Below are positions 32,321 through 62,600 of a stretch of DNA of 64,000 nucleotides, one piece after another. Both the position numbers and the translations under genes were made by a program. The notes under the pieces were generated by a model. The model did no database searches, was not told the origin of the DNA, and saw nothing but the letters and a program-made list of their open reading frames with translations. The stretch covers positions 33,916,001 to 33,980,000 of the forward strand of contig OZ249436.1 of assembly GCA_965235115.1 (NCBI GenBank), read 5' to 3'. Every line of letters starts with the position of its first letter. Within the stretch, counting starts at the first letter, position 1. The stretch is from Laetmonice hystrix. Its lineage: Eukaryota.

Positions 32321-33099
32321 TCACCATGAAGGTGGCCCTTCCATTACTCGCTCACTCACTTCCTGTCCCGTATGAAGCTCCATTGTCCAGTAATGACTAG
32401 AGGAAATAGAGGCATTTGCTGTCTGTTTGTCCATCAGGTCTGGGAGGCGTGCGAACTGCTGGGGGTCGATGGCTTGAGGTGAGGGAGAAGTTAGCTGCAC
32501 CTCCCCTCTGCCCATAGGAGTGTTTAGGATCTTCTGGATGCTGGCTGGTGTTGTTGTGATGAGAGCCCTAGCGGCAGGCACCATATTGTTCAACGCAATG
32601 TCCACCATTTTGTCCTCTGAGAGGCCAATATGTGTCCCCTCTCGACGTATCCCCTTCAGGAATGCCCGGATGTCCTCCCCGTGCCTCTGTTTACGGGCAC
32701 AGAGAGCGTTCTCCAAGTCCCAGCGTTGTGTTACATTGGGTGTGAATTTCTCCTTCAAGGCGTCCTTCAGTGCCGCAAAATCATTTTTGACCTCATCAGT
32801 CAGATGCACGTACCACTCCGATGCCACATTTGGGCCAAAAAACATAGGCAGCGTGGTGGCTAATTTTGCCTGTGTTGTCCATCCTTTCCCGCTGGCATGG
32901 ATCTGGAACTGGGTCAGCCAAGCTGATACATCCATCCCTTCTCCGAAAGCCGGCAGTCGGGAACCTCCCAAGAAGCCATTCTCTCCGTTAAAGTGTTTAT
33001 GTTCTCCATGCCGGTGTCTGGCTGAGGTGTTCTCGATCTCAGATTATGAGCATGACCGAGTGATGATGATGGACGTGAAGCTTTACTCATGAATGCCAC
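32321..33099 (-). pseudogene. Ty3/gypsy-type gag (capsid) remnant
   Basis: ORFs 32914-33099 and 32321-32971 join across one frameshift: HNLRSR...LPAFGEGMDVSAWLTQF...ASEWYVHLTDEVKNDFAALKDALKEKF...RKQRHGEDIRAF (capsid/major-homology-like). A PBS-like TGGTGGTAGAACCCG lies upstream near 33203-33217. Truncated at the 3' end by a LINE tail. Confidence 0.7.
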
Positions 33100-35231: not shown

Positions 35232-36508
35232 TTAGCATAGACTCCTTGGAGTAAACCTTCCCTGTTCCCTGCTCCTGACTGTCAGTCCGTTCATTGCCAT
35301 GAACAAGCAGTGTAATTCATCAATGAATCCCTTAGACAGTCTATCCAATTCCTCATCCAATTTTCCTCTATCTAGGATGAGCTGGCCAATTGGCGCCAGG
35401 GCTGCTGCAGTGGCCGTGACCACAGCCTTTTTTAACACTGGCAAACTCCCATCTGCCACTTTGGTTCCTGCACCCAACCCCGTAAACACCTCCGTGTCCA
35501 CTTAAGGGGCAACTAGGCCGGTCACATTTGGGATGGTGCCGTACACTTTGGTCAATCCTTCTTCTGATCTCCGCACGTACGGCTCTTTGCAGAATTCATT
35601 GAAGATCTCTGCCATTTCTGGGCAGATCGGCTTCCCTGCCCGATCTCCAGTCAGTGTTTTCTCACGTTGGGTTTTGATCAACTTCAAAAGCTGACCCGCC
35701 TTGTGTGAGTTAGGGTCAGTGAAATAATGGGGGTGTGTTACTTGTGGCAGGCGCTGTTTAATCTCATGGACAATGATCTGCAAAAACTGAAAAGACACCA
35801 AGATAATGGTGCCTGTTGTAACGGAGTTGGCTTTTCCTAATGGAGTGGAATTTGCCGCCGTCACAAATAAGACTCAGGTTGTTGTTGTTCACAAACTCCT
35901 CAATGGAGGATATCCGAGGATTCTGCATTTGCAGGGTCCGTGGCAGGGGAGATCGGCATGTACATGTTTTCCAAAACCGGCATCGGAGACGGCGACACCG
36001 GGTGGTATGGACCTGGGGAAACTGGCGTTAGCCTTGGTGGCCCCACTGGTGTTGGCCTTGGTGGTCCCACTGGTGTTGGGCCATAGACCGGTGAGGGCTC
36101 CGTCGGCGTCGGTGTCGTCGGGCCATAGATTGACGAGGGCTCCCAGTCCATCAGCATCTGGAGGACCTCCGGATAGTTGCCGAAGTCCGGAATTGGACTT
36201 CCCCCACTAGCCGGTTGAGCAGCTGAACTTGCACCCGCCCGCGGCGTCGTCTCTCCCGCCGTGGTCGTTTCCTCAGCATCCATCTTCTGGGGAGGCTTGG
36301 GTGGGGGAAAGTTCTCATCCGCCAGTGCTAACCTCAGGGCCTGCGCCTGGCTTTGGGTGATATTAAGGTGGGCTATGTCGGCTTCTGTCATAGCATTGAG
36401 GATTGACACCTCTGTGAAGTCCTCCTTCGATAGGGCATCTGTCTTTTTCCTTTTCAGGAGGTGCTTGGTTGCCAAATCCAACAAAACAAGGGGAGGTTCT
36501 TTGGCCAT
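35232..36508 (-). pseudogene. Decayed DIRS-order retrotransposon ORF1/gag-like gene with a SAM-like N terminus
   Basis: N-terminal DALSKEDFTEVSILNAMTEADIAHLNITQSQAQALR (SAM-like), a Pro-rich linker and a C-terminal GKPICPEMAEIFNE...PNVTGLVAP*VDTEVF...KVADGSL pattern typical of DIRS ORF1. It has internal stops and a 117-bp foreign segment. Confidence 0.55.
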
Positions 36509-36680
36509 TTTGGGCTGCTGAAGAAAATATCAGAGACAGTTGTGCTGACAAACAGTCTCTCCGCACGGACTGCTTGCTGAAGGGTCACTGCCCGAGCAGC
36601 TGTGTTCTTGCGCATATATAGAAGAGGGTTGATACCCCCGCTGGCTGCTCCGCCCTGGGGCGCCTCCAACCGTCTTTCCT

Positions 36681-37137
36681 TTAAAACCTCATTAAGGGGC
36701 ATAATGTCCCGACAACTTTGGGACGCGCTGTACAGCTATTGTTATCAGAATCAGGAGAGTCATCGTCTGTCGTGACTGAAGATTCATCGCCTGTAGTGAC
36801 TTGCATACAACTCTCCTTGGCTCGCAAACCAGTCATGTTCATACAAATCTTGTAATTGACTGATGATTTATGAAATAGCTGCAAGTGTTTATCTAGCCTG
36901 GTAACCTGGCTGCTACACTTTGGACACTTTTTTGTATGGTCGCTGGTCACTGGCATTCACCTTTCTCCTCAAAGATTCCGGGTCCAGATTGAAATATTTA
37001 CTATACACCTTTTCTTTTGGAAGTTTGTGGACTTGTATGAGATGGCGAGATACTGCGTGCACCATTTTCATACAGATGGGACACTCTTTTCTTACGAGTA
37101 TTTGCGTTTTGGATGGGTTAAAACACGTAAAATTCAA
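36681..37137 (-). pseudogene. Frameshifted ORF with two C2H2-like zinc fingers, probably TE-borne
   Basis: KECPICMKMVHAVSRHLIQVH and KKCPKCSSQVTRLDKHLQLFH in adjacent overlapping frames. Confidence 0.55.
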
Positions 37138-37437
37138 TTGAGGGGGCTTACTTTCTGTGAGAAAAATCTTAAAGAGGGCAGAACTACGTATGAAAAGCTC
37201 ATTGAGCTGTTTTTTAATATTTATGACACTACAATCGATTTACCGGAAGTAGGCAAAAAGGGTAATTGGAACCTGACTTTCAAAACAGTTTTTCAATGCT
37301 GAAAAAATTAAAATACATTTTTGCTTCTCAAGGCTCTCAAAAAGTCGACTGGGTAGCCAATGTTGAGGTTGTGCCACGCTCGCGCGCCATGGTCAAAGTG
37401 GGAGCGGGCTCCCAGAAGTGGTCCCCACGTGGTAAAG

Positions 37438-37789: not shown

Positions 37790-38045
37790 AGAGAAGAAGG
37801 GAGGCTGAGAGCCATTGTGGTTACAGCACGGCAGAGTTCCCATGGCTGAGCACAGTAGCCTGTTTCTCCACCCCTCCAGGTTCTGCAAGCCTGGAACACC
37901 TGTCTGCCATGACGCTGTACTGGCCCGGGTAATTTACGGTCCGGAGGTTGAAGTTGAACTGAGGCGATAGCCAGTAGACCCGCTGGAGTGATTCACTGAC
38001 GTCTACATCTGGTGCTCGGCCTCTGTTAATCATGCCCACCGCTGT
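37790..38045 (-). pseudogene. DIRS/Ngaro RNase H C-terminal fragment
   Basis: AVGMINRGRA...LQRVYWLSPQFNFNLRTVNYPGQYSVMADRCSRL, the ADxxSR end of a DIRS RT-RH. Probably the continuation of the fragment at 42409-42820. Confidence 0.7.
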
Positions 38046-38149
38046 CGAGGGACACGCTGGGCGTTTCCCTGGTCCTGGTACGTAATATGAGACGAATGGT
38101 CGTCAGGTTGAAATCTGGCCTTGGCCCCAATTAAGTGGTTCGGCTGGTC

Positions 38150-38795
38150 AGTGAAGTGACGGGTGCCGCGTCTGGCGGTGTTCCTTCTGTAACCATCGGC
38201 ACGCGTCAGTGGAGTGGCCGCGGGACTTGTGATAAGGGCAGTATGGGCTGCCGTCCTCCGGGGGGGGGGGGGGGGGGGGGGTGTCTTGTTGGGTCGCGCT
38301 GCTTCCCTTCTCCTCCACTCTCCTTACCCTATAGCCTCGTCTGTCCCATTGCTGTTGGCCCTGGTGTTAATTTCCTGAGCCTCGCGCCTGGGATCTCTCG
38401 ATTCTGGCGAGTGCCGCTAAAATGTTATCATAACGGCCTAGTGGTGCTGACTCCGTTGCGGCACATGATTTCGTCTGCGGGCCTACCGTTTCCAGGCGGG
38501 AAGCCATCTCGACTGCCTCGGCGAATGTTGATGGGTTTTGTACTGCCAATAGGTTACTGAGAGACGGTTCCAAACCTCCGATAAAGACCGATGTAAGAAT
38601 TTAATCAGTGATGTCGTAGTTGCGCTGTTTGTGTCGGAGCGTTCCCGCGAAATCGAGAGCTGTCTGACCTTTTTGTTGCTTTAAGCCGAAAAGATCCCTG
38701 CGCTTTTGCCAAGTGGGCCGTTTGTCTCTAAAAATGTCAATCATATGGGACTTAAAAACCGAATAAGATGCCGTTGCCGCGGCGCACCAGTACAA
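38150..38795 (-). pseudogene. Ty3/gypsy gag C-terminal half (capsid plus CxxH-x4-H-x4-C knuckle)
   Basis: SYSVFKSHMIDIF...LKQQKGQTALDFAGTLR...LAVQNPSTFAEAVEMASRLE and YCPYHKSRGHSTDAC. Aligns by eye with the gag at 48450-49090. Contains in-frame stops. Confidence 0.85.
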
Positions 38796-39258
38796 AGAGG
38801 AAACAACACTTACTATTGCAGATTACCGTGGGCCCAGTGGGCCTGCTGCCCGGGGCTGAGGGTCAGGAACCCTTCCAGGTCCTCCAGGCCGCCCAGCCCT
38901 GGCGATGGGGAGGGTGCCCGCCACCATTGGCGGTGATCCCACCTCCTCTCCCCCCGCGGAGGGCACAGTCGCCCGGGGTCGAACGGTTGCCCGGCGTCTT
39001 CCCCTCGCTCCCCCGGAGCGCGCTGCCCGGCTGGACGCCGCCTCCCGCAGGTCCGTGATATACGCCCAGGCCTGGGGCTGGTAAGGTATCACGACCGCCG
39101 GCACGTCCCCCTACCAGGGGAACGGGACGCTTAGCATTATGTTAAAGCAGTCCCCTGCGTTGCTTTCACGGTAAGAGATCACAATCTCCTTCTTCGTGCT
39201 GTTAAAACATATTAAGGGTGTTGCCCCGGCCATAGTTGATGTGTGACTGACCAACGAG

Positions 39259-41357
39259 ATGGGGATCATACAAGTTACAGTCTTAGTTGTTTGGACACTG
39301 GTCCTAACGCCCCAGAACACTATTCAGGTTAATTTCTTAGACGGACTCAATTATGGGGTTGTGCTCCAGCCTTCAAAGTTGATCTCGACTGCTAAAGATG
39401 CTTGGATATACCAGATTTTTCATGTTGACATACCCACTGTCCATTTAGCACCTCTGACCAGCCTGCTGGATGTTTATCCAACAGCTGCACGTGCTCCGGT
39501 GCGAGCTTCACACCCGGCGACTAATGACCGTCATTTGCAGTACGACATGCTCATCATGTACTTTAACACGGTTCGACGGGGTTTGAACGAAACCTTACGC
39601 CAGGTCCGCGGTAATCTGGAAGCGGCCCTAAGCCTGCTTCCCAAAGACGAATGGTCAGCCAGACGTCACCCGCGAGCACCGTTTGAGATTGTATCAACAA
39701 TCAGCTACTATTTATTTGGCACAGGCCGCAATAATGATATCCTCAAGAACGCGAGGGCGATCGCCACCCTATCGCGCCAGCTTCACAGCTTCAGCGCGAA
39801 GCAGGATGCTAAACACGTAAATACTGTACATATGGTGAATGTCACTAACGATAGGATTGATCGTGTGGTAGAAGCTCTCTTAAATAATCACTATCGTATC
39901 AGTAACGTGACGCGTTATGTTAATCTAATGGCTCATGCTGTGAGAGACATGCAACGCAATGAAATGATTTCACGCCATTTACAGATGTTATTCTACACAT
40001 TATCAGGCAGAGTTCAGGCAATGACGCTGTCTGCTGTCTCTATGTTAACAGAATCGGTTAAATTCCTCAACGGAATTCGAGACCTAACCAGGGGCGAACT
40101 TTCATCAAACTTGGTACCGCACCACGCGCTCGAACAAGCACTAACTAACATTTCAGTTTTCCTTCTGGAGAATTATCCGTGCCATAATCTAGCGTTCACA
40201 TCAACAGCTTATTACTACGATAATGCGAACCCCGTATTTTCGAGACAGTTTGAAACCACTATTCGATATCCTATTAACTCTATCCTTTTGAATGCTATTG
40301 GCATACCGCTAGTTGGTTATCGCGACGATCACATGTTACCTGAACCGTGGGTGATACCAGACCCAATCCCCCCTGACGACTCATTTAATGCGGAAAAATT
40401 AAAAAGTGAAAAGTCAAATCTTAGAGTCTCTCTTCAAAAGCTTCAAGAGGCATGACAACAGCACGCCGTTTCATGATGACCTAGGCGTTATGGAGGCGAA
40501 TCAAGCGAACATTGCCATCAGATCATGGATACCAATTGGAATCATGCCAGCTTTTGCCATCGCCGTCATCGTGGTAATTATTTTACTACGACGACACAAG
40601 GCTTCACTACTTGCATTGGCAGCTCTGGGTACGCCGCAACGCAAGGTGGCCGAGGTTGTACTGGGCCACTCTACCCAACCACAGGCGGGACCGACCATCA
40701 TGCTTGATCTACACGCACCTCTCTACGCTACGCTCGCTTTGGTCATCTTGCTGACGGTATTGTGTGTGTTTTCGCTTGCCTATTATGTGTCCAGAGACAA
40801 ACCCGCTGCAGGCCTAGCACTACAAGTCTACACGGGCTCCGAACTTTTAACTATTCGATTGGGAATGATGAACTTTGCTGCAGAGACATTGACGTTATCT
40901 CTTTTGCCTCTGTTAACTCATTATGCTGTTAAACTACACCGCCTGTCAGCTACCATAACTTTGATGTGGGCATCTGCGCTCATCGTTCAACACCAATATG
41001 AATGTCCAGACGGAGGGCTGCACCGTTCTCTCGTTACCACGGACAGTTTCACTCCCAAGGCGCCATGCACTGGCGCTGGCTTCAGTCCACCCTACCACGG
41101 TGCTCGTTCGACTTCTCCGTTACGATCAGGGCCTTGCCACGATCATTAACACGGATACACCAGGGCACGTGGGGACATGGTATCATGTTCCGGTGGGGTT
41201 AAACCAGGAGCACTCTGTTCCCCTCTACCCCCGCTTGGCCGCCCAAGACGGCTACCACCCGCTCGACACGGCGGGGCCTTCAAAAGGTATATGCCCCTGC
41301 CACGGCACCGCAAGCGGCCCAGGCTTAGTGACATACACTTTTTTCATGAACATTTAA
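39259..41357 (+). pseudogene. env: Envelope (class I fusion, F-protein/errantivirus-Env-like) gene of a Ty3/gypsy element; internally deleted and frameshifted
   Basis: Signal peptide, LNYGVV motif, furin-type site RRHPR (39661-39675) followed by a hydrophobic fusion peptide APFEIVSTISYYLFGTG, long heptad helices with NxT/S sequons, GELSSNLV..HAL, YYY, then TM segments in ORF 40406-41149. Followed by a PPT and an LTR. Confidence 0.8.
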
Positions 41358-41732
41358 TCTTCGCTATTTAGAGACATTCGCTATGTTGGCAGTCTCAGCT
41401 TTATATGCATACTGTTTCGAAGTTTCGGTGAAGGCAGAAGGACATTAATTTGTGCACGCCTTCTTGTGAACATTTGCAACGCATCGTGGGAGATTTTACT
41501 CCACACACGAACATTTTACTCAGACTATGGCATGAAGTTACGAGTATATTTATTTCTGTTGATTAGTAATGAAGGTTCTCATATATTTAATATGTAATCT
41601 ATTTTGTCATGTATCTACGGTTTTACACAATCCGGATAGGTAGAAATATGTAAGTTTTTAATCGCCCCCTGGTATAATTTTAATATTACAAATAATTTCC
41701 TTCGTAAATTATTTGAAGGGGGACCGCGAGGG

Positions 41733-42408
41733 TGTGTTGGAGTACACCATTATTAACTTTTAACAAATACGGTTTTATACATCAGTTTTAGCTAGTCGCA
41801 CAATTTCCTATGTTAGAGTATCCAAACCAACAGCAAGCCTTAGCCAGACGTGCAGCAGGTCCAACTACCAAGTCATAAATCATTCGCCTACAGGAGGAAG
41901 GTTCAGCAGGTACAGCAGAAAAGCAATAACTCATCCACCTTACCAGCCCAAACCCCTCCATAGGTTCAGGTAGTGCAAGATTAGTCACGGACAAAGAAAA
42001 TCCCCCGAAAAGCTGGTAGATATAGACGCGCAACCTTGCAGTAGTCGTATGTGGTTTTACCTTGGGAGACGAGCAGACGTGGAGTTCTCTCGCTCAGCAC
42101 TTAGCTTTCTCATCAGCCCGCACTTGGGAGGTTTTCAGCATTCACCCTTTGCAATAGGAGATCAGTACGGGAACAAGACTTTGCAGATTCTCCGGAATTA
42201 TTGAGAAACGTTTCTGATTCGGACTTTCAGACATCACAGCTACTAGGGAAATTCAGAATGGGAGAAAGGGAGTCTAAACTTGTATCGTACGTAAATATCC
42301 ACTTGTGCTTTACTTCAACTACAGAGGAGACACTTGTACTTTACATCTACCACAAGGAGATATCTGTACTCTACACACGGACGGACTAGCCAAAGCTCTA
42401 CCCCAACA
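41733..42408 (+). mobile_element. 3' LTR of the env-bearing element
   Basis: Starts TGTGTTGG directly after the purine tract GAAGGGGGACCGCGAGGG (41715-41732) and ends CCCCAACA where DIRS RT sequence resumes. No partner 5' LTR was found. Confidence 0.65.
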
Positions 42409-42820
42409 TCGAATACCCATTTAAGCCAACAAAACCCCAAACAAAGGCCGATACACCACCATAAAAGGTCGTGCCAGAGTGGTTGCGTCATCCTGGTCTT
42501 GTGCCAGGGCCCCCATACAAGGGCCCCCATACAGACGAAGAATTTTCCTTCTTTAAAGACTTGGCCGGCCCAGTTGAGCCGGCCAGCCACCCGTTGAAGT
42601 GTCTTTTTACTGGCCGACTTGGCCGCCAGTAGGGCTTGTAAGTCCTCGGCCAGCCCTTTGATTTTGTCGGTGGGGAGTCCAAGTGTCATGGTCTGGCTGT
42701 TGATGTTAATCCCCAGGAAGGTGATTGCTCTCGCTGGGCTGATAACCTTGTTATAATTAATGCTGAAACCCAGCTTTTTGCACAGTGCATTTAGGGTTGT
42801 GATGCAGTCTTCCTTGGTGT
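42409..42820 (-). pseudogene. DIRS/Ngaro reverse transcriptase C-terminal fragment
   Basis: LGFSINYNKVISPARAITFLGININSQTMTLGLPTDKI...KKTLQRVAGRLNWAGQV...DLLWW. Confidence 0.8.
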
Positions 42821-43189
42821 GCTTACGAGAGTCTTTCTGAATTATCTAGCCTTCAATGGACATGATGGAATACATTTTTTTCAAAAAGGTATTTTATAAG
42901 TGATTGCCCAGTGACTAGTTATCACTCATAGGATGTCTTAAAAAGGTCAAATTAATTTTTTTATTCACCACTTTATATGGGAGGGTACTTCCCACCAAAA
43001 GAGATGTAAACTGACATCTGCCCTCCACACTGCCATGCTCCCGATACACGGGCATGCCACCGACTGTGGGGGAGTAGGGCTCCGGTTATTGGCACACAAA
43101 TAGAGAAACTTAACAATATAATATAAAGTGAAACATGGGGGGACTGAAATATCTGCACACAAGACCCGGGGTCACCACAATACCTTCTG

Positions 43190-43790
43190 CTTGCTTCTGA
43201 ACTTATGCAGACCAGTCTATGTGGGCAACGCTAATTTTGCTAACCTGATGTCACTCTGGGTGCTACCAGTGCTGAACCCCGCATGTGTTGGGCTGTTGAT
43301 TAATCACACACTGGAGCATTGGCAGGGAACGGATGCCAAACTTGTCACAGGTATAAAGTTCTGAGCAGCACACACTGGAGACATAGGCAGGGCTACCTGA
43401 AGTGAGTGAGGTGCCACCGCCCAATGCAACACTAGCTGTAGGTGTAGAAACGGCTGTACTGACCTGTCCTTGGTTTGTAGTCATTCGATGTTGCTGGAGC
43501 GATTTGCATCTTCCACAGGATTTTGCAGGGTGTTCCCTTGTTTCTCAGTTCATTTTAAAGCTGTTGTTCCTTTTCATACTGATCCCTTTTCGCTTTGGCG
43601 TATTCTTCCTTAAAAACGTCGTAGGTCTCAGTTACACTGTCTTTATAAGTCTCCAGATCCTCACCATTGACTTTTCGATGAGACTCCAGACCGGGCTGTG
43701 ACACTACCGCCTCGTACTCCTCATTAATTACACAAAAGTCACTAAATGCCCGCTCAAGTTCCAGCATGAGATCCTTCAATATATCTCCCT
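43190..43790 (-). pseudogene. BEL/Pao-like gag fragment
   Basis: Helical DLMLELERAFSDFCVINEEYE...VNGEDLETYKDSV segment, a Ser/Thr linker, then IKLAKLALPT*TG, the start of the Pao gag capsid domain. Confidence 0.55.
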
Positions 43791-45029
43791 TTTGTAACAG
43801 AGTCGGCTTTCCCTAATGGAGTGGAATTGCCATCGTCAAAAATAAGAACTTGACTCAGGTTGCTGTTGTTCACAAACTCCTCAATGTAGGATATCCGAGG
43901 ATTCTGTATTTGCTCTCCCGGAGTACACAAAACTATCCTACACAGCTCAGTGACGGCACGTATGCTGGTTGTATCTGGTCACTGGTAGTATGTAGGGTCT
44001 CAGCCTGCTTGTCACTATTGTTGACTGTATGTCCAATCTTAATTCACAGTCTGTGCTGTAATAGTACTTCTCGTACGTGAGTTCAGTTAGCAGGCTGAGA
44101 GCAGACTCTGGTGAGGTCCCAAAGTGTCGGGTTTATAAAGGAAAGGACCCTAATTATATGTGGGTCTCATTAGCATGCATTAAAAGTCATTAGAACCGAC
44201 ACTGGTTTTGGGCCATAAAAGTGCCACTATAGTGTCACTTAGCTGTCAGGCTGGGGAAGGTGTAATCTACAAACCAGCTGTTGTCTACACCAGGGTTTTG
44301 GGGTGTTTACATTTGTGGTTAGATACTACATATCCTAGCATGGTTGCCAGACCCTCTCTCCACCCCTCTCATTAATCATGGTAATTTGTGTTCCAGGGTC
44401 TGGCCATTAATCTTAAGGTCGGGTCACTGGGTGCTCTTTTGCGTGCAGCACATACTCAAGTACTAGACCCGACCTTTACCACTGCTTTGTATATTGTGTT
44501 GGGGCTTTAGTCGAGCACTCGTGGTAAACGTTCAACCACATCCACATATTGCAGTCTGACTCCAGGCTTGTTGTACAACTCTAGGTTTATTCCAGTTAGC
44601 GATGTGCACTGTCAGCTTTGCCTCATAACTACTCCATCTCCAGTGCTGGTACTGACTGGGCTCTACTGAGTCCAACCGGATACTCCCCTGACTGCCTATT
44701 TTCCCCTCCCTTTTATTGGGAGGCCGATTTGTTCTCACCTGTCCCTCTCCCAGCTCAACCCCGCCGTATTCACCTCCATAGGTGACCACCAGGAGGCGCG
44801 AGTCCATGAGGTCCCCCTGAGGACACGGGACTGGCAGCCTTCATTGGTCACCGCCAGGAGGGGCAAGTGCAGCGGGTCGGCTGAGGACACGTGGGGCTCT
44901 GGACCTCCTCTAGTCCACCCGATCGCTTCCGCCAGTCGCCACCAGGAGGGGCGAGCGTTCTAGCCCCAACACACCCGCGGGGTCCCCCTTAAATAATTTA
45001 CAGGGGAAATTATTTCAAACCCCCGGGTT

Positions 45030-45808
45030 TAACTAATGTATGGTAATGACCCACTACCGATGACCCTCCCAGTATTGGGCGAGGAGCTCATTGCAAGCCC
45101 TGATGACAGGAGCTATTTCGCAGATGTCTCTAACAGATTAAATATTTTGCGGAAAATGGCAACAAAGTATACTGACGAGTATGAGACGGCAATGAGAGAC
45201 GCATTGGATGCAAAAGCAAGACCAACAGACATTGATGTGGGAGACTATGTATATTTATTTGACCCTACCTGCGCCATAAATAGGGTCTCAAAGTTCAGCC
45301 CCAGATATAGGGGACCATTCCGAGTGGTCCAGAGGTGAGATGATCATATGGTTAAGCTACAATCTCTATCTTCAGGGAAGCCCCTGGACCACTACTACAA
45401 TGTCTCTAAAGTGAAAAGGGCAGACGTGCCCTGGTCCCCCATGCTGTCTGGACGTGATGGAGCCACGGCCGGGCCAGGAATACGGCAGGGGGACCCCCTA
45501 CTCCCACAACTCCAGCGCCGACGACGTCGACGGCATCGGGTCAGCAGGCGGTTTCAGTGCCCAAACCTCCGGCTCTTGCGCCCGACCAGCAGCCGGGCCT
45601 GGAGACGAAGGGTCAGCGGAATTCAAATTCCCGTGCCTGCAACAAAGAGGCATCAGAGTTTTGGACGATTGATAGGATTATCAGGAAAAGGAAACTCAAA
45701 TCAGGAGAATGGACATACTTCATTCAATGGACCGATGGAAACAAGCGGTCCTGGGTCAAGCGGCGAGATTTCCATCCAGACTTTGACCCTGATGAACTCA
45801 TATCTTAA
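45030..45808 (+). pseudogene. Integrase C-terminal GPY/F domain plus chromodomain
   Basis: LMYGNDP...DVGDYVYL...SKFSPRYRGPFRVV...YNVSKVKR, then FWTIDRIIRKRKLKSGEWTYFIQWTDGNKRSWV. One stop and a frameshift. Confidence 0.85.
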
Positions 45809-46064
45809 ATTTAGTGTTGACCGCCCATAGCATTATTCTGTCCCGTCGCCATGATTGTTCTTGATGGGTGTTGACGATTATCGATATACTGGTGTCCATA
45901 ATGTTGGAATTATTCATGAGATGGGATGGTGCTTACCTTGTAGAGCTGCTTGACGCCGCCAGCAGCCACCTAAGGTGGGATACTCCAGCCTCGGCTGCTT
46001 CGGGCCCACTGGGGAAAGATTCCTCCACCTCCACGTCTGGCGACTCAGCCGGGCTCACGACCTT

Positions 46065-48380
46065 CTTGTCCTGTGGAACTATGTCGTTTTGAATATAATT
46101 GATAAGGAGTCGACATTCCTCATCTTTCCTCTATTCTTTCACGCACGTGTCAATGGACAGATCCACTGTATCCGCCTCTTCCGATAAGCTGGGTCGATCC
46201 TTTGTCACTACTGCACACTCTTTATATTCAGGTAGGATTCGCTCAATCCCGGGGGCTCACACTCCTCATCCGCGGTGGCGAAGTTTGTACTCTTGATAAA
46301 TAATCCGCCAGGAAATGCGTTTTTCCTGGTTCATACATGATGTCGACATCAAATCCTGTCAAAAACAAAGCCCAGCGTTTCAGCCTATTAGACGGAGCTT
46401 TGTGAGCCTGTTGAAGGAGTGCTATAAGAGGTTTGTGGTCTGTGACGACCACCACTCGTGCGCCATTCAAAATGTCCTCAAAGTGGCGCAAAGCTCGAAT
46501 TACTGATAGCGCTTCCTTCTCTGAAACCGTGTAGTTCTCCTCTGCCTTTGTCACTGTACATCCCCAGAATTAAATTGGCCTATAACACTCGACAATCTTG
46601 TGACAGAGGGCCGCACCGCAGGATTTTTCGGCACTGTCTGAAAAATCGGGGTGTATCAATAACGGTGGTGATACAAGCGCTGCTTTGATCCTCTGGAAGG
46701 CTTGCTCCTCTTGATCGGTCCAATGAAACTTGACATCTTTGTATAAAAGGTTATATAACGGTTGTGCCAACTCTGCGAAGTGAGGTATGAAGGCTCTGTA
46801 ATATGAGCAGAGGCCCAGAAATGCTCGAACCATCTTGATGCCGCGTGGCCTGTGAAAATTGTCCACTTTGTCAAGTATGCGCTGCTGTGTGTGTATTCCA
46901 TCTTTTGAAATGACATATTCCAAGAATTCAATCTTCGGCTTACACCATTCACATTTTTCCGGCTTAAGCTTCAAGCCTGCCCGAGTTATGGCTTGCAGAA
47001 TTTTCTCAACACTCGACATATGTGCGGGCACGTCTGAGTCGAATGCGATCACATCGTCCATGTACGATGCACAGACAGACGGAATTAGGCCTCTCAGGGC
47101 CAGAGCCATGACTTTGGAGAACGCCCATGGGGCTCCCACGAGACCCATGGGTATTTTGCGGTATTAGACGACTCCCTGTATGGGTACCTCAAATGCAGTG
47201 TATTTCCTGGCTGATTCCTCAATGTCGCACTGATAAAATCCAGACAATAAATCTAATTTACTATATAGGCATGGCTTCTTTGAAGCGATGATCAGGAAGA
47301 GTGATCGAGCTATAGGCATAGGAAACTTATTTTTCTTTGTAATGGTGTTTAACTTGCGAAAATCTGTGCACATCCGCATCTGACCGTCATGTTTTCGCAC
47401 CACAACAAGAGGACTATGCCATACTGAATCCGATTCTTCTAAAATACTGGCGTCCAATAACTGTGACACATGGCTGTTGATCTGTGTAATCTGGCGAGGG
47501 TTATACCTATACGGAGCTGAGGTAATGGGGCGTGACCCTGGCTCCAAATCAATGTGTCCAAATCAAATCAGCGAACACGTGCCGATTTCTTGAAGGCTGG
47601 TGGCAAACGCCGCTCTATTACACTCCAACATCTCCCGAAACGCTGCTTTTTCCTCCTCTGATATTTCCGATTGCGACAAATCAACATCAATTGGCTCACC
47701 TAGCGCGCCCGTCTTCATTGCCAATAGATTTTTTTCACAGCGAGCATCACCCATGCATTCCGACAGTGGCACCACATCAACGTCCAAGAATGCCAGTACC
47801 TGCGTGGGCGTGATAGAGGAACCCGAATTAATCACTCACACAAACATTCTATCAGCAACAATGGAGTTTTTTTCCTGTAATGATTGAAGAGTCAGCTGGT
47901 GATGGCAGCACTAGGACATCAGTTCCATACGGCAAATGTTCAGATATATCGCATTCCAGCACCACTTCGGTGAAAGGTGGCAGGTGCACTGTATCCATGG
48001 TATGCACCGAGATGGAATCCCATAAACGAATTTGACCCATATCATAATCGATAGTTGCCCGGAGTGCCATTAACAAGTCTCTGCCAATTATAATGTCATA
48101 AGTTAGAGACTGTAGGCAAGTAAATTCGTGCTGCATGCACGACCCTCCAATATTAAATTGTAAGCACACGACTCTATCAACTGGAGTCCGAGAGTTATCA
48201 GCGAGAGCAACCGTCTCGTTAGGGGTATAAGAGTCAAGTATCACTTCCGGAGGTAAAGATGCGAGAGTTCCAGCTGATATATAAGTGTGACTAGCACAGG
48301 TATCAAGCGCAGCCCCTACATTTTTTTCGGCAAAACACAATTGAAGAAATGGTGGCGTATGAACACTTTTGTTAAATGAA
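46065..48380 (-). pseudogene. pol: Ty3/gypsy pol: aspartic protease, RT, RNase H and linker
   Basis: AALDTCAS...IIIGRDLL (PR); PYRY, WHSPLVVVRKHDGQMRMCTDFRKLN, KLDLLSGFYQ, MGLVGAP, YMDD (RT); NYTVSEKEALSV, TDHKPL, ADYLSR (RH); linker RKDEECRLLINYIQNDIVPQDKK, which ends abruptly near 46065. Several frameshifts and stops. Confidence 0.95.
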
Positions 48381-48399
48381 GACTTGATTGACTGGCCAT

Positions 48400-50796
48400 C
48401 CCCCTGACCCAGGGCTAGAACCTCCGTGCCCGAGGGACGGGGGCACTTGGTGCTGATTGAACCGACCTCTGTTCAGCCAGCGGCAGTTCTCCGTAGAATG
48501 ACCCCACATGTTGTGGTAGGTGCAATACTGTCTGCCGTCATCTGAGTGCTGGGGTGGGTTGGGTCGGCCTGTCGGCAGGCGGTCCCTCTACTGCTGTCGA
48601 CCTTGACCTTGACGTGGCCCGTCCCGAGCTGGCCGGGGCTGACCGTATCGGGTGTCAGCACGCGCCCTGGCAGAGTGTGTACCCTTAATGCGGGAGAGTG
48701 CTTCTAGTATCGCTCTGTATGCTTGGGGAGATTGCGTATCCAGCACCGCACACGACTTGGGTTTCTGAGACTCCACTGTCTCAAGGTGAGATGCCATCTC
48801 GAAGGCCTCAGTAAATGAAGCAGGATTCTGCACGGCTAGTAGGTGGCTAAGTGAAGGCTCCAAGCCCGTGATAAACCCAGATGTCAAAACTTGGTCTGAC
48901 ACATCATAATTTCTCTGTTTCTGTCTCAGCAGCCCAGCGAACTCTAGTGCATTCTGAGACTTTTGCTGTTTCAACGAAAAAATGTCCCTGTGCTTTTGCC
49001 AAACCGGACGCATATCACTGAAAATATCGACCATCTTTGACTTGAATGTGGCATAAGACGATCTGGCCGAGTGTTCCAGAGCTCTCATCCAATAGACTGT
49101 TTTCCGTTGCAGGTTGCTATGCTGCCTCAAGTGCCTGGTTGATGACCATGGTTCGCCATAGTTAACCTACGGACAATCACTCCAGAGAGCTGATTTTGAA
49201 CTGCTCACAAAACCTTGCAAAATAGAATATTTCGAAACTTGGACCGGCCCCCGACAACGATCATCCCTCCAAGAACGCGGTGTGACTATTTTTACATACT
49301 GCAATTTTACATACTGGGAGAACGCAGATTTTTTACATACGGGCAGAATTTTTACACATTGCGGGAGTTTTAGATGGGCAAATATTTTTTAGGGCCTATA
49401 TATTACGATAGTTTTACACATACAGGGAATTTTACATAGGGTATAGGTCTGCGGGTTGTACAGCCCTCCTCTCTGTCGGACGGGTCCCGGGAAGGTAAAA
49501 AAACCTGACATCATCCATGGATGGCCTTGATTTACTGTTTCCTGCCCCATATCTACTGTTACTTGCACATGCTCCATACCAACAGTGCTTGTTACCTGGC
49601 ATTAATGGTCAGTATCGAAATGTTGTCGACTGTTGGGTGTTTCGATGTTGCTAATATCGCTCAGGTCAAAGTTCCGACCGTTCAACTTCACACCACGATT
49701 AAAACTTATTTCTGCCTGTTACCGAGATTCTAACTTATTGTATCTTGTCACCCCCATTGTTTTATTATTCTGGCCACCCCGAACTGCTCATATTGACACG
49801 GAGAAACTCAAAATCCCAGATTTGCTCAACACCACTTTCTTCATTGTTCTCTATGGCCCAAGCGCTAGCAACGCGATGCGCTTGCACCGACTTTGGAGTT
49901 CGGAAAATGGTCTATTCGCGACCCTATCCTTTAGGCCGTGCAATGCCATAGAGAGCAGATGGTCTGCGGGCCAACCGTAAATCCAGCCGAGACTTTCGAT
50001 TTCGTCGAAGTAAACTCGAACGCACTCAGAACTCTTCCCTCTGAACTGCTGCTGTAGCCGTTGCTGTTGTTGCTGTAGTTGGTCATGCTGTTGCTGCAGC
50101 TGTTGCTGCTGCTGCTCGTGCTGCGGTGGGTCCATCATGGTCAGGCGTTTGATGGGGTGATGAGTGTGTACTAAAGGGGAGGGTGCCCGGCGCGTGGCGG
50201 TGTCCGGCGAGTCGACCCGAGATATGGGTGGGTCCCGGGGAGGAGAGGGTGACCCCCCCTGTCTGCGCACTATCCTCTGTAACGTCACTCAAGTCGAAGG
50301 CGTGACCTTCAATAACAATCTGTTTGCCCCGGAGTTCGGACTGAGTGAAATGTTGAAATGAGCAGAGGCCTCTCCACCATACACTAAAACAAATATATCT
50401 TGGGGAGCCGGCAAAATTGTCCTGTACACTAGTTTCCCTTTTCAACCATTACGCCTGGCCACGGTCACTGTGGAATATCGCTCCATATGTTGTGAGGAAA
50501 ACTTCCAGGTCCGACGTGCGCACCACAATGAATCCTAGTAGGCCCTGATAGGCGCCCGCCATCCGTACATTACCACAGTTAGCTGAAATGAAAATAGACC
50601 GGCGCTCCTGGCCAGCCTCCCGCAAAATTAGGAGATCTTCTACATCCGGTACCTCAATCAACGTTATTCTTTCATTCCTGTCGTCTGCAGTGACTGTTAT
50701 GTGCGGCCTTCTGGATGCCTCCACCGTCAACATGTTAACAATATAGGCCGGAATCGACGTACCTGTTGTTTGACGGGCTGTTAAGGCTCTCCGCAT
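48400..50796 (-). pseudogene. gag: gag of the LTR-bounded gypsy element, split by a MITE
   Basis: FRGKSSECVRVYFDEIE...LKDRVA|NWMRAL...LKQQKSQNALEFAG...NPASFTEAFEMA and the knuckle YCTYHNMWGHSTENC. A long N-terminal extension runs to 50796. Confidence 0.85.
49094..49913. mobile_element. Non-autonomous DNA transposon inserted in gag (AT target duplication; ISL2EU/PHIS-like)
   Basis: TIRs AGACTGTTTTCCG / CGGAAAATGGTCT flanked by AT. Removing it restores gag in frame (VANWMRAL). Confidence 0.7.
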
Positions 50797-53700
50797 TGAC
50801 CAATGTTGTGTAACGATAGTGGTGTTGTCCTAATTACAAAATTACCGGGCTTCGGGTTCTTCACCAATGTTGTGTTGGGGCTTTAGTCGAGCACTCGTGG
50901 TAAACGTTCAACCCCATTCACATATTGCAGTCCAACTCCAGGCTTGTTGTACTCCAGGTTTATTCCAGTTAGCGATGTGCACTGTCAGCTTTGCCTTATA
51001 ACTACTCCGTCTCCGGTGTGGGTACTGACTGGGCTCTACTGAGTCCAGCCGGATTCTCCGATTTGTCCTCACCTGTCCCTCTCCCAGCTCAACCCCGCCA
51101 CCCCACCTCCATAGGTGACCACCAGGAGGAGCGAGTCCGTGAGGTCCCCATGAGGACACGGACTGGCAGCCTCCGTTGGTCACTGCCAGGAAGGGCAAGC
51201 GTAGCGGGTCGGCTGAGGACACGGGGGGCTCCTCCCGAGATCCTCCAGTCCACCCGACCGCTTCCGCCATTCGCCACTAGGGGGGCGAGCGTGGCGGGTC
51301 GGTCGAGGACACGGGGGGTGTAGTCCTTCCGGTCGACCCGACTGCTTCCGCCGGTCACCACCAGGAGGGGCGAGCGTAGTGGGTCAGTCAGGGACTCGGG
51401 GGGGGGGGGGGGGGGGGCTCCGCCGGTCGACCCGACTGCCTTCCACGGCCACCGCCAGGAGGGGCAACCGTGGTAGGCCAGTTGAGGACACGGGGTATGG
51501 CTGCTCCGGCTAACCCCCACTGCTTCCTCCGGTCACTGCCAGGAGGAGCGAGTGTTGGGAGTCATCTGAGTATACGGGGTGCAACTTTGCCGTTCTAGCC
51601 CCAACACAATGCAAACAATGCGCGGGATAAAAATAGGTCTAGGTCTCTTTTGCTATTCAGTATTCTAACCCTATTTTCGCTGTGAAGATGGCCTTAGATT
51701 CCAACATGGCGTAAAACCACCATTACTCCCTCACTCCCGATACAGAGATTCACTCTCAACCGACAGTGCAGGGAAGATGCCGCACTGATATATCAACTTT
51801 CTGTTGAAAGAAATAGCTGCAGTTCTGTCGTAGACTTCCTTGATGCTGGCAGGGGCATCCAAAGCTTTATCACCGCATATAATGTGGCTCCCCAATCTGA
51901 TCTCAGGCCTACCATCTGGGCTTATGGCATCTGGCCAGCTTTGCATGGAAGTTTCGTGGAGTCCCTTTTGGGTTCTTCAGCAATTGTCGTGGGACAGGTT
52001 TGACCACGAACTAACAATAATGAAAATGAAAAGTCCAATACGTTTTAAGAGGAAAAGAATAAGTTTAATGGGGAGTAAAATTAAACAATGGTGCGCACGT
52101 GTGCGGCTTGAGCATCAGGGGATGCTGAACAAATTTTGAAGAATGGCGGACGGCGTGGCTGGACGCGTCCCCAGTTATAGAATACATGTAACCTCGGAAA
52201 ACCAGAATAATTGTACCGAACCATACAACATACAACGATCAGCACGAGCTGTTGGATTAATCGAGAAGGACTTACCGCTTGGAGTTTGTGGATACTCAGG
52301 CTTGATAAAGTTCTTTGTGATGACACACGTGGTGTGTCGGAGGCCGCTGGCGTAGCAAGCCAGAGCCGTAGAGAAATATATTTGATGTGTGTTGATTGCC
52401 GAGTTTGAGGTAAGAGAGAGAGCGAGTATTAGACTCACTTAGATTATATACTGATCCACAACCCTCCAAGACGGCAGACGCGTGTCGGCCTCCGATTGGC
52501 TCATCCCCATCTTCCAGGAAGATGGAGATCCAAATTTGGGATGGAAGACGACGCTCCCTCGTTACGCGAGGCGCTAATTAATAACTCATCAACAGGTATA
52601 GAAGGTACCAAAAGCTTCCAAGTCGAATAACTGCTTGGATAAAATATATAGGATAAAATGACTAATCTAGAAATATGCTCTGCACAAAGAGCTACACTTT
52701 GATAATAAATATGTTGTTTGTTTTCCTTTAGTTTAAAAGTTACAGAAAAGTGGCAATTATGCACTTAAATAAAACCTGAGAGACTTATAAATAACATGTG
52801 AACATTTAAGAAATGACAGAGACTCCACAGAGTACTCTGGGTATCGTCTACTGGAAAATGTAAACGGTTTTTGAGGACGTTGTAATCCACTGATAGACTA
52901 TACGTCTGCATGGTTGGCCATTGTTTGATATGGCTGGATAAACGTTAATACCTGGAAATAGCTTATGAAAATAGTTCCTACAGATTCTCTAAGAACATTA
53001 ACTCTGTTTACAGTATTTGTAGAGTTCTGAAACGTATATTTGTATGATAAAACTGTGACACGCATAACTAATTAGGTTCGCTTAAGGGAAAGAAAGATGG
53101 CTGCCGTAATTACTGGTGTACGGATATATATAGCACATCTTGATAGTGCAGGAGTAGCCCTACTCTGAGATAGGGGTACGACATCTCCCCCCGGTGCGGG
53201 TGAGATTGGAGTATCCAATCGTTAAAATAATAATAGGTATATAACACACGCACACGTCACACGACATATCTTAAATAATTACAATAACAGTTCATAAAAC
53301 AGGTTAAAAGGTTTCGCATGGTAACATTTGTGTAGTTGTAGTCCATCGGAGTCCTAAATGAACAAATTCAAATGGTATTTTGCCATGCATTAGAAAGTGG
53401 CACTAGGCAAGCGTGTTGGCAGTTAAAAAGCACATGGACAGTTTATGTGAGTCTTTGCCAATTTGATGTCAAAAGAAAGTTTGTTGATCATCTTAAATGC
53501 CTATTGAATCGGTTTAATGTTTCATGAAGAGTTTGTGATAACATACCGTAGCCACATGTCAAATATGTGTATAATTATATATGTGCAGCTGGAAAAAGCT
53601 AAAGATGCTGCACGGACAGTTTATGCAGCACATTAGTGCAATTGTGGAATAAAAGATAGCACTGAACTTGTAACCACACGGAAAGTTTATGTGGATTCCT

Positions 53701-60118: not shown

Positions 60119-62600
60119 GCAAGTCACGCAGCTTGTGCTGGGGGAGCTCCATTGTCTGGGAAATGATTCCCAGGAAGGTAATGCGCTGCGAAGGACCCTC
60201 CATTTTTGAATAGTTGATTGCGAAACCCAGGCGGCGAAGTAAGGCGATTAAAGTGTTGACACACTCGAGGCACTCTTGGTAAGAACGTCCGACACACAGA
60301 AAATCATCTAAGTATGCTATCACACCTTTTCGTTTCATTATACCTCGGACAGCCTGGGAGAGTTCATTAAATATTCCCAGGGCCAGGCGCGACCCGAAGG
60401 GCAGAGGCGTGTCTACCAAATACTGCTTCTGGCCCGGGGTGAACTCCCACGAAAGTCCAAGTAGATGATGGTCTGTAGAATGTGTTTTGACTGAGCGGTA
60501 GGCGTTCTTTAGATCCACTTTGGCGAAATAACATCCCGGGGATATCATCTCGATCGCATCCTGGAGGCTTTGATACTTAAACGGGGAGTGATCAGCGAAA
60601 TCATTTACTGCCGAGCCTACCGGCCGGCTACAGTCATGTATTAGGCATACCCGGCCCGAGTCTTGTTTAGGTATGGCACCCAACGCTGATACAATGGATG
60701 GAGGGGTGCTTACCTTGATGTAGCGACCGTTAGCCACTTCCTCCATTATCTTGTCTTGCACTGTCTGGCGGTTTTTAGTGCCCGTTGCTGACTTGTAGTT
60801 ATTCAGCTTCACACGAGGTCCAGAGTGTACAGCCTACTGGGGGTTTCTGGCTGCTCTTGGGGACCAGAAGCCTCATCTCTAGCTGAGACGCCTGGGATCC
60901 CCACACAAAACCGTGCTGGGCCTGGAGCTCACGGTATTGGGTGTCAAAACGGAGGATGCTCCACCACTCAAACCGGCCTGCAAGGTCGTATACCATGGCA
61001 GGGTATGTGAGGTAGTACTCCACGTCTCTGCGGCGTAAATCTCCGACCTCCAGCAGGTGAGCTAGAAGGCGCATGTTGGCACCGCTCCACTCGTCCCAGG
61101 TAATATTTGGATGACCGATGTTCCTGGCTCTGACAGAAAGGCTGCCATCAGCACCTTCCGTCAGCACCATACGGTCCCGGCGGCGGCGTTGCAAACGATT
61201 TTTGACGTCCGCCTGAGGGAAGGCCATGATGGAGACCGCTTTCTTTTTCGTCGCCTTCATGGTCAGGAACATCCGTGGGTCATGCGACAGCCCCACCGTG
61301 TGAGAGCGGCGCGTGGTTTGCCTTCTCGTTTCTCCGCGGGGCACTGCCAGGCTCTCATCTCTCTCGCTTGCTGACAACCCATCAAGTTCCTCACCTGCTC
61401 TGCGGAGTTGCTCGGCTTGCTTGCGGACCCGGGCGATGTCCAGCTCATCCTCCTCGTTCGTCAGGGCTCATTTTCTCATTTTCTCGGATTCCTTGTCCTG
61501 TCTGCAAGCACTCGCTAACTTGAACACAGATCACCCAGTGATCGTCCAAATCTTGTCCAAGTTGGCAGTTCTTGCCAGTGCAAACTTTGATATTCACTTT
61601 TGTTGGGTGCCTGGTCATGTTGGCATCCTGGGCAATGAGCAAGCTGACAGAACTGCCAAGAGGGCTCTTGAAACAGACGTCGAATTGTGTCCAATCCCAG
61701 CCTCTGACCTCAGACCTACCATCTGGGCTTACGTTAAGAACAGATGGCAGGCCGAATGGGATGAACAACCAAACAATAAGTTGTATCAGATCAGTCCCAT
61801 CGTAAACCAAAGGTATCATCATGGCCTAACCCAACGGAGGCATGAAATTGTTTTTACTCGATGCAGAGTTGGTCATTCTAGATTAACCCATGTGTTTTTA
61901 TTGAAGGGGGAGCCACCTCCAGAAAGTTATGGCTGTCAGTGTCCTTTGACACTGAAGCATCTTTTACTCGAATGTGGTGATTTTACTCTCATCAGACAAA
62001 GGTTTTATAATGAGACGAGTCTTAAGGATCTTTTTAACAATATCAGACCAGGAGTGATTTTAGAGTTCTTGTCAGAGGCTGGACTTCTGACCCTTTTCTA
62101 GATGTGTTTTGGTGGTGTTCCCGTTGGGACCCGGGATAAAATAGGTTCCTTTGGTTTTATGGTCTTATAACTCTGTTTTCGCCGTGAAGATGGCCGCAGA
62201 TGCCGACACGGCGCAAAATCACCACTACTCACTCACTCACTCACTCACTCGTCAGGGCTATCGTTAGGCTGACCGGCCGTCTTATCCTTTCAGGCGCGGA
62301 GGTTGTTCTTGGTAAATTCCGCTGCGTGCTTGTTTCCACTGTCTTAGCATCAGGAGCCGGCCTTGGCCTACCGGTAGCTCGAGCCGAATGTACATCTGCC
62401 CGTGTTAAGTGGGTAAGAGCCAGCAGCTCGTCGCATCCCTCGTTCCGGAGAACTGAGGTTGTGGTTCTTGAAAGTTTGAATTCCCGTGCCCAAGAGTCGA
62501 AGTCGAAACTTGGGCCTGCCGCTGTCTCCGATGGCAGTGCCATGCTGAGAACGATGCTTTTTGAGGCTTGTTGCTTGCGCGCTGCTAACCGTCAGACTGA
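60119..62600 (-). mobile_element. DIRS/Ngaro-type element (SAM-like gag plus RT), split by a LINE and truncated at the 3' end
   Basis: gag 62543->60799 is continuous once the LINE is removed (DFDSWAREFKLSRTT...HDPRMFLT...EWSGANMRLL...WWSILRFDTQYRELQA). The RT in 60812->60119 has LGAIPK, IHDCSRP, AKVDLKNAYRSV, LPFG, YLDDF and ITFLGI. Confidence 0.9.
61469..62248 (+). mobile_element. 5'-truncated I/Nimb-type LINE with a perfect 11-bp TSD
   Basis: RNase H (IFSDSLSCLQAL...WVPGHVGILGNEQADRTAK) to the stop at 62101, then the UTR and a (CACT)n tail. TSD TCGTCAGGGCT at 61458-61468 and 62249-62259. Confidence 0.95.

Follow-up and report, generated by a model that had tools for sequence, protein, structure and literature searches.

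A probable Ty3/gypsy remnant with a broken F-type env gene in Laetmonice hystrix, and a predicted second membrane protein in the Env tail of its family

Introduction

A shortened envelope (env) reading frame in the genome of Laetmonice hystrix, with membrane segments encoded downstream of it in a different frame, raises the question of what kind of gene it was, what it has lost and what the part beyond its membrane anchor encodes. The frame lies in a 64,000-nucleotide stretch of contig OZ249436.1, here called the window, and all coordinates are those of the window. Class I fusogens enter the endoplasmic reticulum (ER), form trimers, are cleaved at an RxxR site and drive fusion by refolding of their helices.

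Such an env lineage is unsurprising in this setting because F-type env has already been published in annelid and mollusc Ty3/gypsy elements. The main text of Chary and Hayashi (eLife 2026; PMC13524379) reports 1512 env-carrying Ty3/gypsy elements across animals, with F-type env in annelids and molluscs, and describes "ancient errantiviruses" whose F-type ENV has a furin site, a fusion peptide and an RSV-F-like fold. Of the first 15 Annelida rows in its Supplementary file 1, 14 carry ENV_F. The ectodomains between signal peptide and membrane helix were analysed in that study, which gives the transmission mechanism as unknown for most elements. The main text mentions no second helix or tail for F-type ENV and does not use the word "cytoplasmic"; its figures may bear on this point. 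New here is a conserved tail, predicted to be a second small membrane protein cut from Env.

Results

The shortened frame corresponds to the front of an F-type class I env

The open reading frame at 39259-40455 on the plus strand spans 398 codons and encodes four N-glycosylation sequons and a single cysteine, in agreement with an earlier reading made from the letters alone (the sequence-only reading), which had noted several sequons in an almost cysteine-free ectodomain. The signal peptide proposed in that reading can be called no more than signal-like, since the N-terminus is modestly hydrophobic, with a best 19-residue value of 1.65 on a hydropathy scale, which is not a trained signal-peptide predictor. 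The RRHPR cleavage site at 39661 and the fusion peptide ending in LFGTG (motif at 39712-39726) were both confirmed; the stretch aligned with the RxKR and LFG motifs of the family and with the solved fusion protein 9W4D. The heptad helices also stood, as a single long helix at residues 189-277 of the predicted structure. The frame itself encodes no membrane segment. The downstream transmembrane segment that had been noted is in fact two segments, at 40529 and 40721, but these lie in an overlapping frame. The parts of the gene are as follows.

39259-40455, plus strand: env front part, comprising a signal-like N-terminus, F2, cleavage site, fusion peptide, long helix and membrane-proximal piece; the stop precedes the membrane anchor (123 relatives)
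39661-39726, plus strand: basic RxxR cleavage motif, then predicted fusion peptide (family and 9W4D alignment)
39823-40089, plus strand: long F1 helix (heptad region), model residues 189-277 (predicted structure)
40246-40248, plus strand: deletion junction, with about 186 codons and eight conserved F1 cysteines lost; three letters fit both sides (contigs, P0126 alignment)
40403-41149, plus strand: env in a second frame, with the anchor at 40529-40585, basic residues and a signal-like segment from 40589, a second helix at 40721-40777 and the start of the tail domain (P0126 residues 586-787)
40974-41162, plus strand: end of the env tail domain in a third frame (P0134 residues 724-794, E 5e-7; P0126 residues 796-837, E 0.001)

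A full HMMER scan with the env frame returned 123 relatives at E<=0.001, most of them 780-930 amino acids long, and their matches mostly ended at query residues 322-345. Searching proteins by word index retrieved nothing for the frame and, with the family profile, P0001 alone. No Pfam family matched the window env pieces, the frame itself being without PF12259 (Baculo_F); this family was matched by 7 of the 20 relatives scanned, five of which exceeded the cut-off. Atlas features placed the protein in a Baculo_F cluster at 0.96, a score of low recognition value.

The fold was assessed at the level of the family as well as of the window copy. A profile of 71 relatives matched two solved fusion proteins in the PDB, 9W4D (E 4e-19) and 9W4C (E 7e-18). 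The predicted structure of P0126, an intact relative (pLDDT 77), matched the F proteins of RSV, hMPV and NDV at E 1e-7 to 3e-6; the best nine VIA rows were all F proteins, with NDV F at Z 8.4 and rmsd 5.1 over 285. These matches support the class I fold that had been proposed. An F-like fold with long heptad helices was thus found in the intact relative and weakly in the window stump, for which RSV F ranked first at a Foldseek E of 0.02. In the wide structure search the stump returned mostly generic helical bundles, which led the list.

No env relatives were found in the viral contigs searched, and no close relatives in the metagenome contigs searched. A tree of 77 ectodomain halves joined the window copy with P0126 (support 99) inside a nine-row group (98), the rows being without host labels; the sole relative cluster with a host label came from Mytilus. 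By homology and predicted fold, 39259-40455 encodes the front part of an F-type class I fusion protein, and the window almost certainly holds the remnant of such a gene.

The window copy has lost the cysteine-rich half of its ectodomain

Four pieces of the window follow the order of P0126 (886 amino acids), the nearest full-length relative. Env residues 1-329 match P0126 residues 1-344 (38% identity, E 5e-68), 40246-40452 matches residues 534-602, 40403-41146 matches residues 586-787 (31%, E 2e-24), and the last piece corresponds to residues 796-837. The alignment skips between the first two pieces, indicating that about 186 codons are missing at 40246. The eight F1 cysteines lost there are kept in 69 to 71 of the 71 aligned relatives; the window env also lacks the F2 pair of cysteines, which 69 of 70-71 relatives retain.

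The junction was also seen in assembled contigs, which carry the window stretch in four runs from at most one sample, possibly the window's own source. Contigs with a word depth of about 1000-1100 match the window up to 40248 and then continue into 335 unlike letters, while further contigs enter the window at 40246 after 219 unlike letters. Three letters at 40246-40248 are compatible with both flanks, an overlap that suits either microhomology repair or a cryptic splice junction. As judged from the P0126 alignment and the deep contigs, the jump at 40246, which the sequence-only reading had interpreted as deletion of the Cys-rich half, is a real deletion.

The env frame additionally shifts twice, near 40450 and near 41000. 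Because the membrane part is cut off by these two frameshifts, the window copy is dead; the Cys-rich F1 domains and the in-frame membrane anchor that are present in relatives are absent here through deletion and frameshift. The deep env contigs are 96-97% alike to the window and have a depth of about 1000, compared with 22-33 for the locus-specific contig; depth is not copy number, and the contrast suggests a multicopy env family. By these alignments the window env is a broken gene of the F-type family and no working fusogen. It could yield at most a secreted stump incapable of folding as a fusogen.

The locus resembles a rearranged 3' end of a Ty3/gypsy element

The following features surround the env pieces.

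38042-38784, minus strand: inverted piece of gag, interrupted by stops and containing a Cys/His knuckle (protein 66% identical to the neighbouring gag)
38785-39258, no strand assigned: GC-rich stretch separating the gag piece from env; it runs colinear with env in further contigs of low depth and matches neither pol nor any Pfam family
41715-41732, plus strand: polypurine-tract-like run (PPT); 41690-41740 is 88% identical over 51 nucleotides to the junction of a neighbouring Ty3/gypsy element
41733-42408, plus strand: single 3' long terminal repeat (LTR) with inverted ends, 675 nucleotides, starting at 41733-41735 (depth peak, flank changes)

The PPT and LTR that the sequence-only reading had placed downstream of env were thus both located, with only one LTR: no second copy was found within the 64,000-nucleotide window, so that the 5' LTR promoter is absent from it. 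Contig depth was highest over the LTR, and other flanks appeared before 41731. Env lies upstream of the PPT and 3' LTR, as in an element of this type, but the full arrangement, in which two LTRs enclose gag, pol and env in the same orientation, is not seen at the locus, which has one LTR and an inverted gag. No pol was found upstream of env, nor any continuation there of a DIRS-type flank. The deep gag contigs depart from the window at 38042, and the loose end at 38784 reads on as gag. A minus-strand frame that extends from 39232 into gag might have been the natural start of that gene. This reading was rejected, because the frame matched neither the sister element nor Pfam and the loose end at 38784 reads as gag.

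A second Ty3/gypsy element occupies 44492-51610 on the minus strand, with two LTRs, a primer site, gag, protease, reverse transcriptase (RT) and RNase H; its gag, protease and RT match retrotransposon families. An integrase end and a chromodomain-like piece (45033-45808) are inverted beside its PPT, and no integrase core was seen in 44492-51610. With 66% gag identity and a common PPT junction, it is by sequence likeness a sister family of the env element. Each of the two elements carries an inversion with a deletion. Each also has a short A/T-rich inverted repeat directly before the PPT (41690-41715 and 44990-45015), possibly a conserved signal.

Several other features were recorded in the window. 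A DIRS-type RT/RNase H fragment (42409-42845, minus strand) abuts the LTR end and resembles a DIRS piece near 60165-60266. A run of minus-strand frames at 35505-37300, without a convincing Pfam match, is probably an unclassified repeat; 35812-35932 recurs at 43788-43913 with 87% identity. A lone gag-like frame of another element lies at 32321-33043 on the minus strand (Retrotrans_gag, E 0.01), and exons of a host myosin-IX-like RhoGAP gene occupy 1-6950 on the plus strand; a search with myosin-IX exon sequence yielded two hits, both distant.

Gene order was examined in 42 loci of distant env relatives, which were 20-34% identical to the window env where they matched. A gag or pol match was present in 15 of these, always on the env strand (12 upstream and three downstream, two of the latter being contigs with identical ends), and gag or pol antisense to env was found in none of these 15 informative relatives. 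All five pol frames scanned had the order protease, RT, RNase H, integrase, and L009 also carried a chromodomain. In L009, L014, L017, L019 and L021, gag and pol share one frame with a single stop codon between them, which suggests read-through. Gene content and order indicate that the relatives are ordinary gag-pol-env Ty3/gypsy elements, bearing out the retrovirus-like lineage proposed earlier.

Since all 15 informative relatives keep these genes on one strand, the inverted gag is read as damage and the locus as a remnant. A linked Ty3/gypsy-type pol is present in relatives and in the neighbouring sister element, but none is linked to the window env. The assignment of the window copy to Ty3/gypsy, also made in the sequence-only reading, is therefore likely and indirect: it draws on the gag piece, on the PPT/LTR junction shared with the neighbour and on how genes are ordered in the relatives.

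The Env tail of relatives contains a second membrane module

Two hydrophobic segments were present in 60 of the 65 relatives with a long C-terminus. In 69 aligned tail rows, from which two near-duplicates had been dropped, the first helix was followed by two columns with lysine or arginine in 88% and 79%, then eight hydrophobic columns and a polar stretch. Alanine, valine, threonine or isoleucine occupied position -3 in 57 of 66 rows and a small residue position -1 in 59 of 66, and a Pro/Thr-rich linker came next. At the family level the segment behind the anchor thus has the basic n-region, hydrophobic h-region and small -3 and -1 residues of a signal peptide.

The same pattern was scored by an alignment-free signal-peptide rule, written by us after the pattern had been seen and distinct from a trained predictor. 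The rule was passed by 45 of 58 relatives after the first helix and by 2 of 58 after the second helix, which served as the control. Among separate loci, scored where two helices lay 40-110 residues apart, the corresponding counts were 16 of 19 and 0 of 19; two rows identical to earlier proteins had been dropped from this set, it still contains two duplicate pairs (14 of 17 when each pair is counted once), and many of its loci come from one subclade. The window copy keeps the hydrophobic segment behind its anchor but has lysine at -3 and so fails the rule there.

Basic clusters follow both helices. By the positive-inside rule the chain must therefore cross the membrane between the two helices. 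Beyond the second helix, residues 726-836 of the P0126 model form a strand-rich domain with pLDDT mostly 67-93. This tail domain had no PDB sequence match at E<=10, fold searches having covered the whole P0126 model only; no Pfam family was common to two of 18 members, and Atlas scores were below 0.8.

Collectively, the conserved signal-peptide-like segment and the peptidase-type site behind the anchor lead us to predict that Env is a two-protein precursor. From the pattern of these columns, we consider it quite probable that signal peptidase cleaves the predicted internal signal in the Env tail.

Alternative explanations

The same element and fusogen could also carry an uncut tail, in which case Env would stay a single polypeptide that passes the membrane two or three times and ends in a long folded tail. 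AlphaFold draws the anchor and signal-like segment of P0126 as one continuous helix (613-661), the hydrophobic core is only about eight residues long, 13 of 58 relatives and 3 of 19 in the separate loci fail the signal-peptide rule, and the window copy has its lysine at -3. Set against this is the persistence of small residues at -1 and of A, V, T or I at -3 in a family whose mean column identity is 18%; this is the signal-peptidase pattern, with no other evident reason, and the control position almost never passes the rule. We regard an uncut tail as unlikely, and favor the two-protein precursor.

Two further explanations concern the window copy itself, and both appear very improbable. Truncated vertebrate retrovirus env genes can act as host decoys or restriction factors, and a signal-like start without an anchor would give a secreted product from the shortened frame, whose 398 codons are open while the adjoining gag piece has stops. 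A host-kept decoy or restriction factor is nevertheless hardly credible, because the frame would stay open by chance with a probability of 0.22-0.31 at its 2.8-3.6% divergence from the deep contigs and because the folding core has been deleted; the F2 cysteines and the 5' LTR promoter are missing as well. Similarly, the head-to-head gag and env might represent the family's own ambisense layout, given that one contig spans 38952-39284 without differences and that the neighbouring element also has an inverted piece beside its PPT. That contig, however, has a depth of 22-33, compared with 650-1200 for the gag and env contigs, and stops short of the gag boundary. Together with the departure of deep gag contigs at 38042, the gag reading at the 38784 end and the lack of antisense gag or pol in the 15 informative relatives, this leaves an ambisense family scarcely plausible.

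The locus is best read as a rearranged 3' remnant of a gag-pol-env element because of the inverted gag, the likeness of gag and PPT to those of the neighbour and the gene order of relatives. With confidence just short of that given to the cleavage, we conclude that a likely Ty3/gypsy element has left a dead and rearranged 3' remnant here, with an F-type class I env predicted to encode a two-protein precursor. The fold, deletion and lineage given for env in the sequence-only reading all stand; the frameshifts, the inverted gag and the second membrane module had been missed.

Comparison with known systems

The family shares with the published elements (PMC13524379, main text) its Ty3/gypsy type, gag-pol-env order, furin site, fusion peptide and RSV-F-like fold, whereas the window copy differs in being broken and lacking pol. 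That text describes a chromodomain clade of cnidarian, mollusc and annelid elements, and L009 and, weakly, the neighbouring element likewise carry a chromodomain.

Over the ectodomain, cleavage motif included, the family profile is homologous to baculovirus F and insect errantivirus Env (PF12259). Baculovirus F has one anchor and is about 530-660 amino acids long, whereas the family proteins reach about 780-930 with two helices and a tail domain. The F proteins of RSV, hMPV and NDV are the best solved-structure fold matches of the intact relative, at 7-13% identity; pneumovirus and paramyxovirus F, both from RNA viruses, have a single anchor followed by a short tail. The glycoprotein precursors of alphaviruses, flaviviruses and bunyaviruses, which are class II RNA-virus systems, are cut by signal peptidase. 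The family tail would work alike, with an anchor, an internal signal peptide and a second membrane protein, and no homology is claimed.

In the BFVD search of predicted structures, the P0126 model matched first the glycoprotein of Hubei myriapoda virus 8, a chu-like virus (E 5e-28), and then A0A145VUZ2 of abalone herpesvirus, an uncharacterised protein of 801 amino acids (E 3e-25 over 863 columns); both outranked baculovirus F. These two matches have 14-16% identity, TM-scores of 0.35-0.37 and high rmsd. Class I fusogens are reported in aquatic herpesviruses and Aliusviridae by Viro3D (PMC12583693), whose main text does not mention "haliotid" or "malacoherpes", and in eel herpesvirus in the text of PMC13030845. 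In the literature searched, which excluded most subscription papers, no env of this kind is described as having an internal signal or a second helix, and no link between herpesviruses and retroelement env is described.

Discussion

We propose the following model for intact copies. An N-terminal signal would direct Env into the ER, where the protein would trimerise, and a furin-like protease would cut at the RxxR site, freeing the fusion peptide. The long helices would then refold and the particle fuse with its target cell, as with paramyxovirus F. Behind the anchor, the short hydrophobic segment would re-enter the membrane as an internal signal peptide, and signal peptidase would cut at the small-x-Ala site to release a second protein. 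This would consist of a short lumenal part rich in Pro and Thr, a single membrane helix and, on the cytosolic side, a folded domain of about 110 residues. After cleavage F would have hardly any cytosolic tail, so that the connection between it and the Gag capsid in budding would most likely be made by the second protein. This putative role as an envelope-capsid adaptor is the most likely one, and we hold it with less confidence than the cleavage itself.

We lean slightly toward a broader reading: a widespread invertebrate family in which one env gene yields a tailless F-type fusogen and a small membrane protein that is released by signal peptidase, has a conserved cytosolic domain and acts as the envelope-capsid adaptor, with abalone herpesvirus perhaps carrying a protein of the same lineage.

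Taken alone, the window env adds one more dead copy to a kind of element already published, and is of little consequence. If the tail prediction holds, the Env of these retroelements would resemble RNA-virus glycoprotein precursors in its construction and would include a second structural protein that has been overlooked and that persists in a family whose mean column identity is about 18%. The abalone herpesvirus match offers a first hint of gene exchange between retroelements and DNA viruses that infect molluscs; shared descent, if real, would tie the entry protein of mollusc herpesviruses to invertebrate env retroelements. The two-protein model bears on how env-bearing Ty3/gypsy elements outside insects may couple Env to their capsids.
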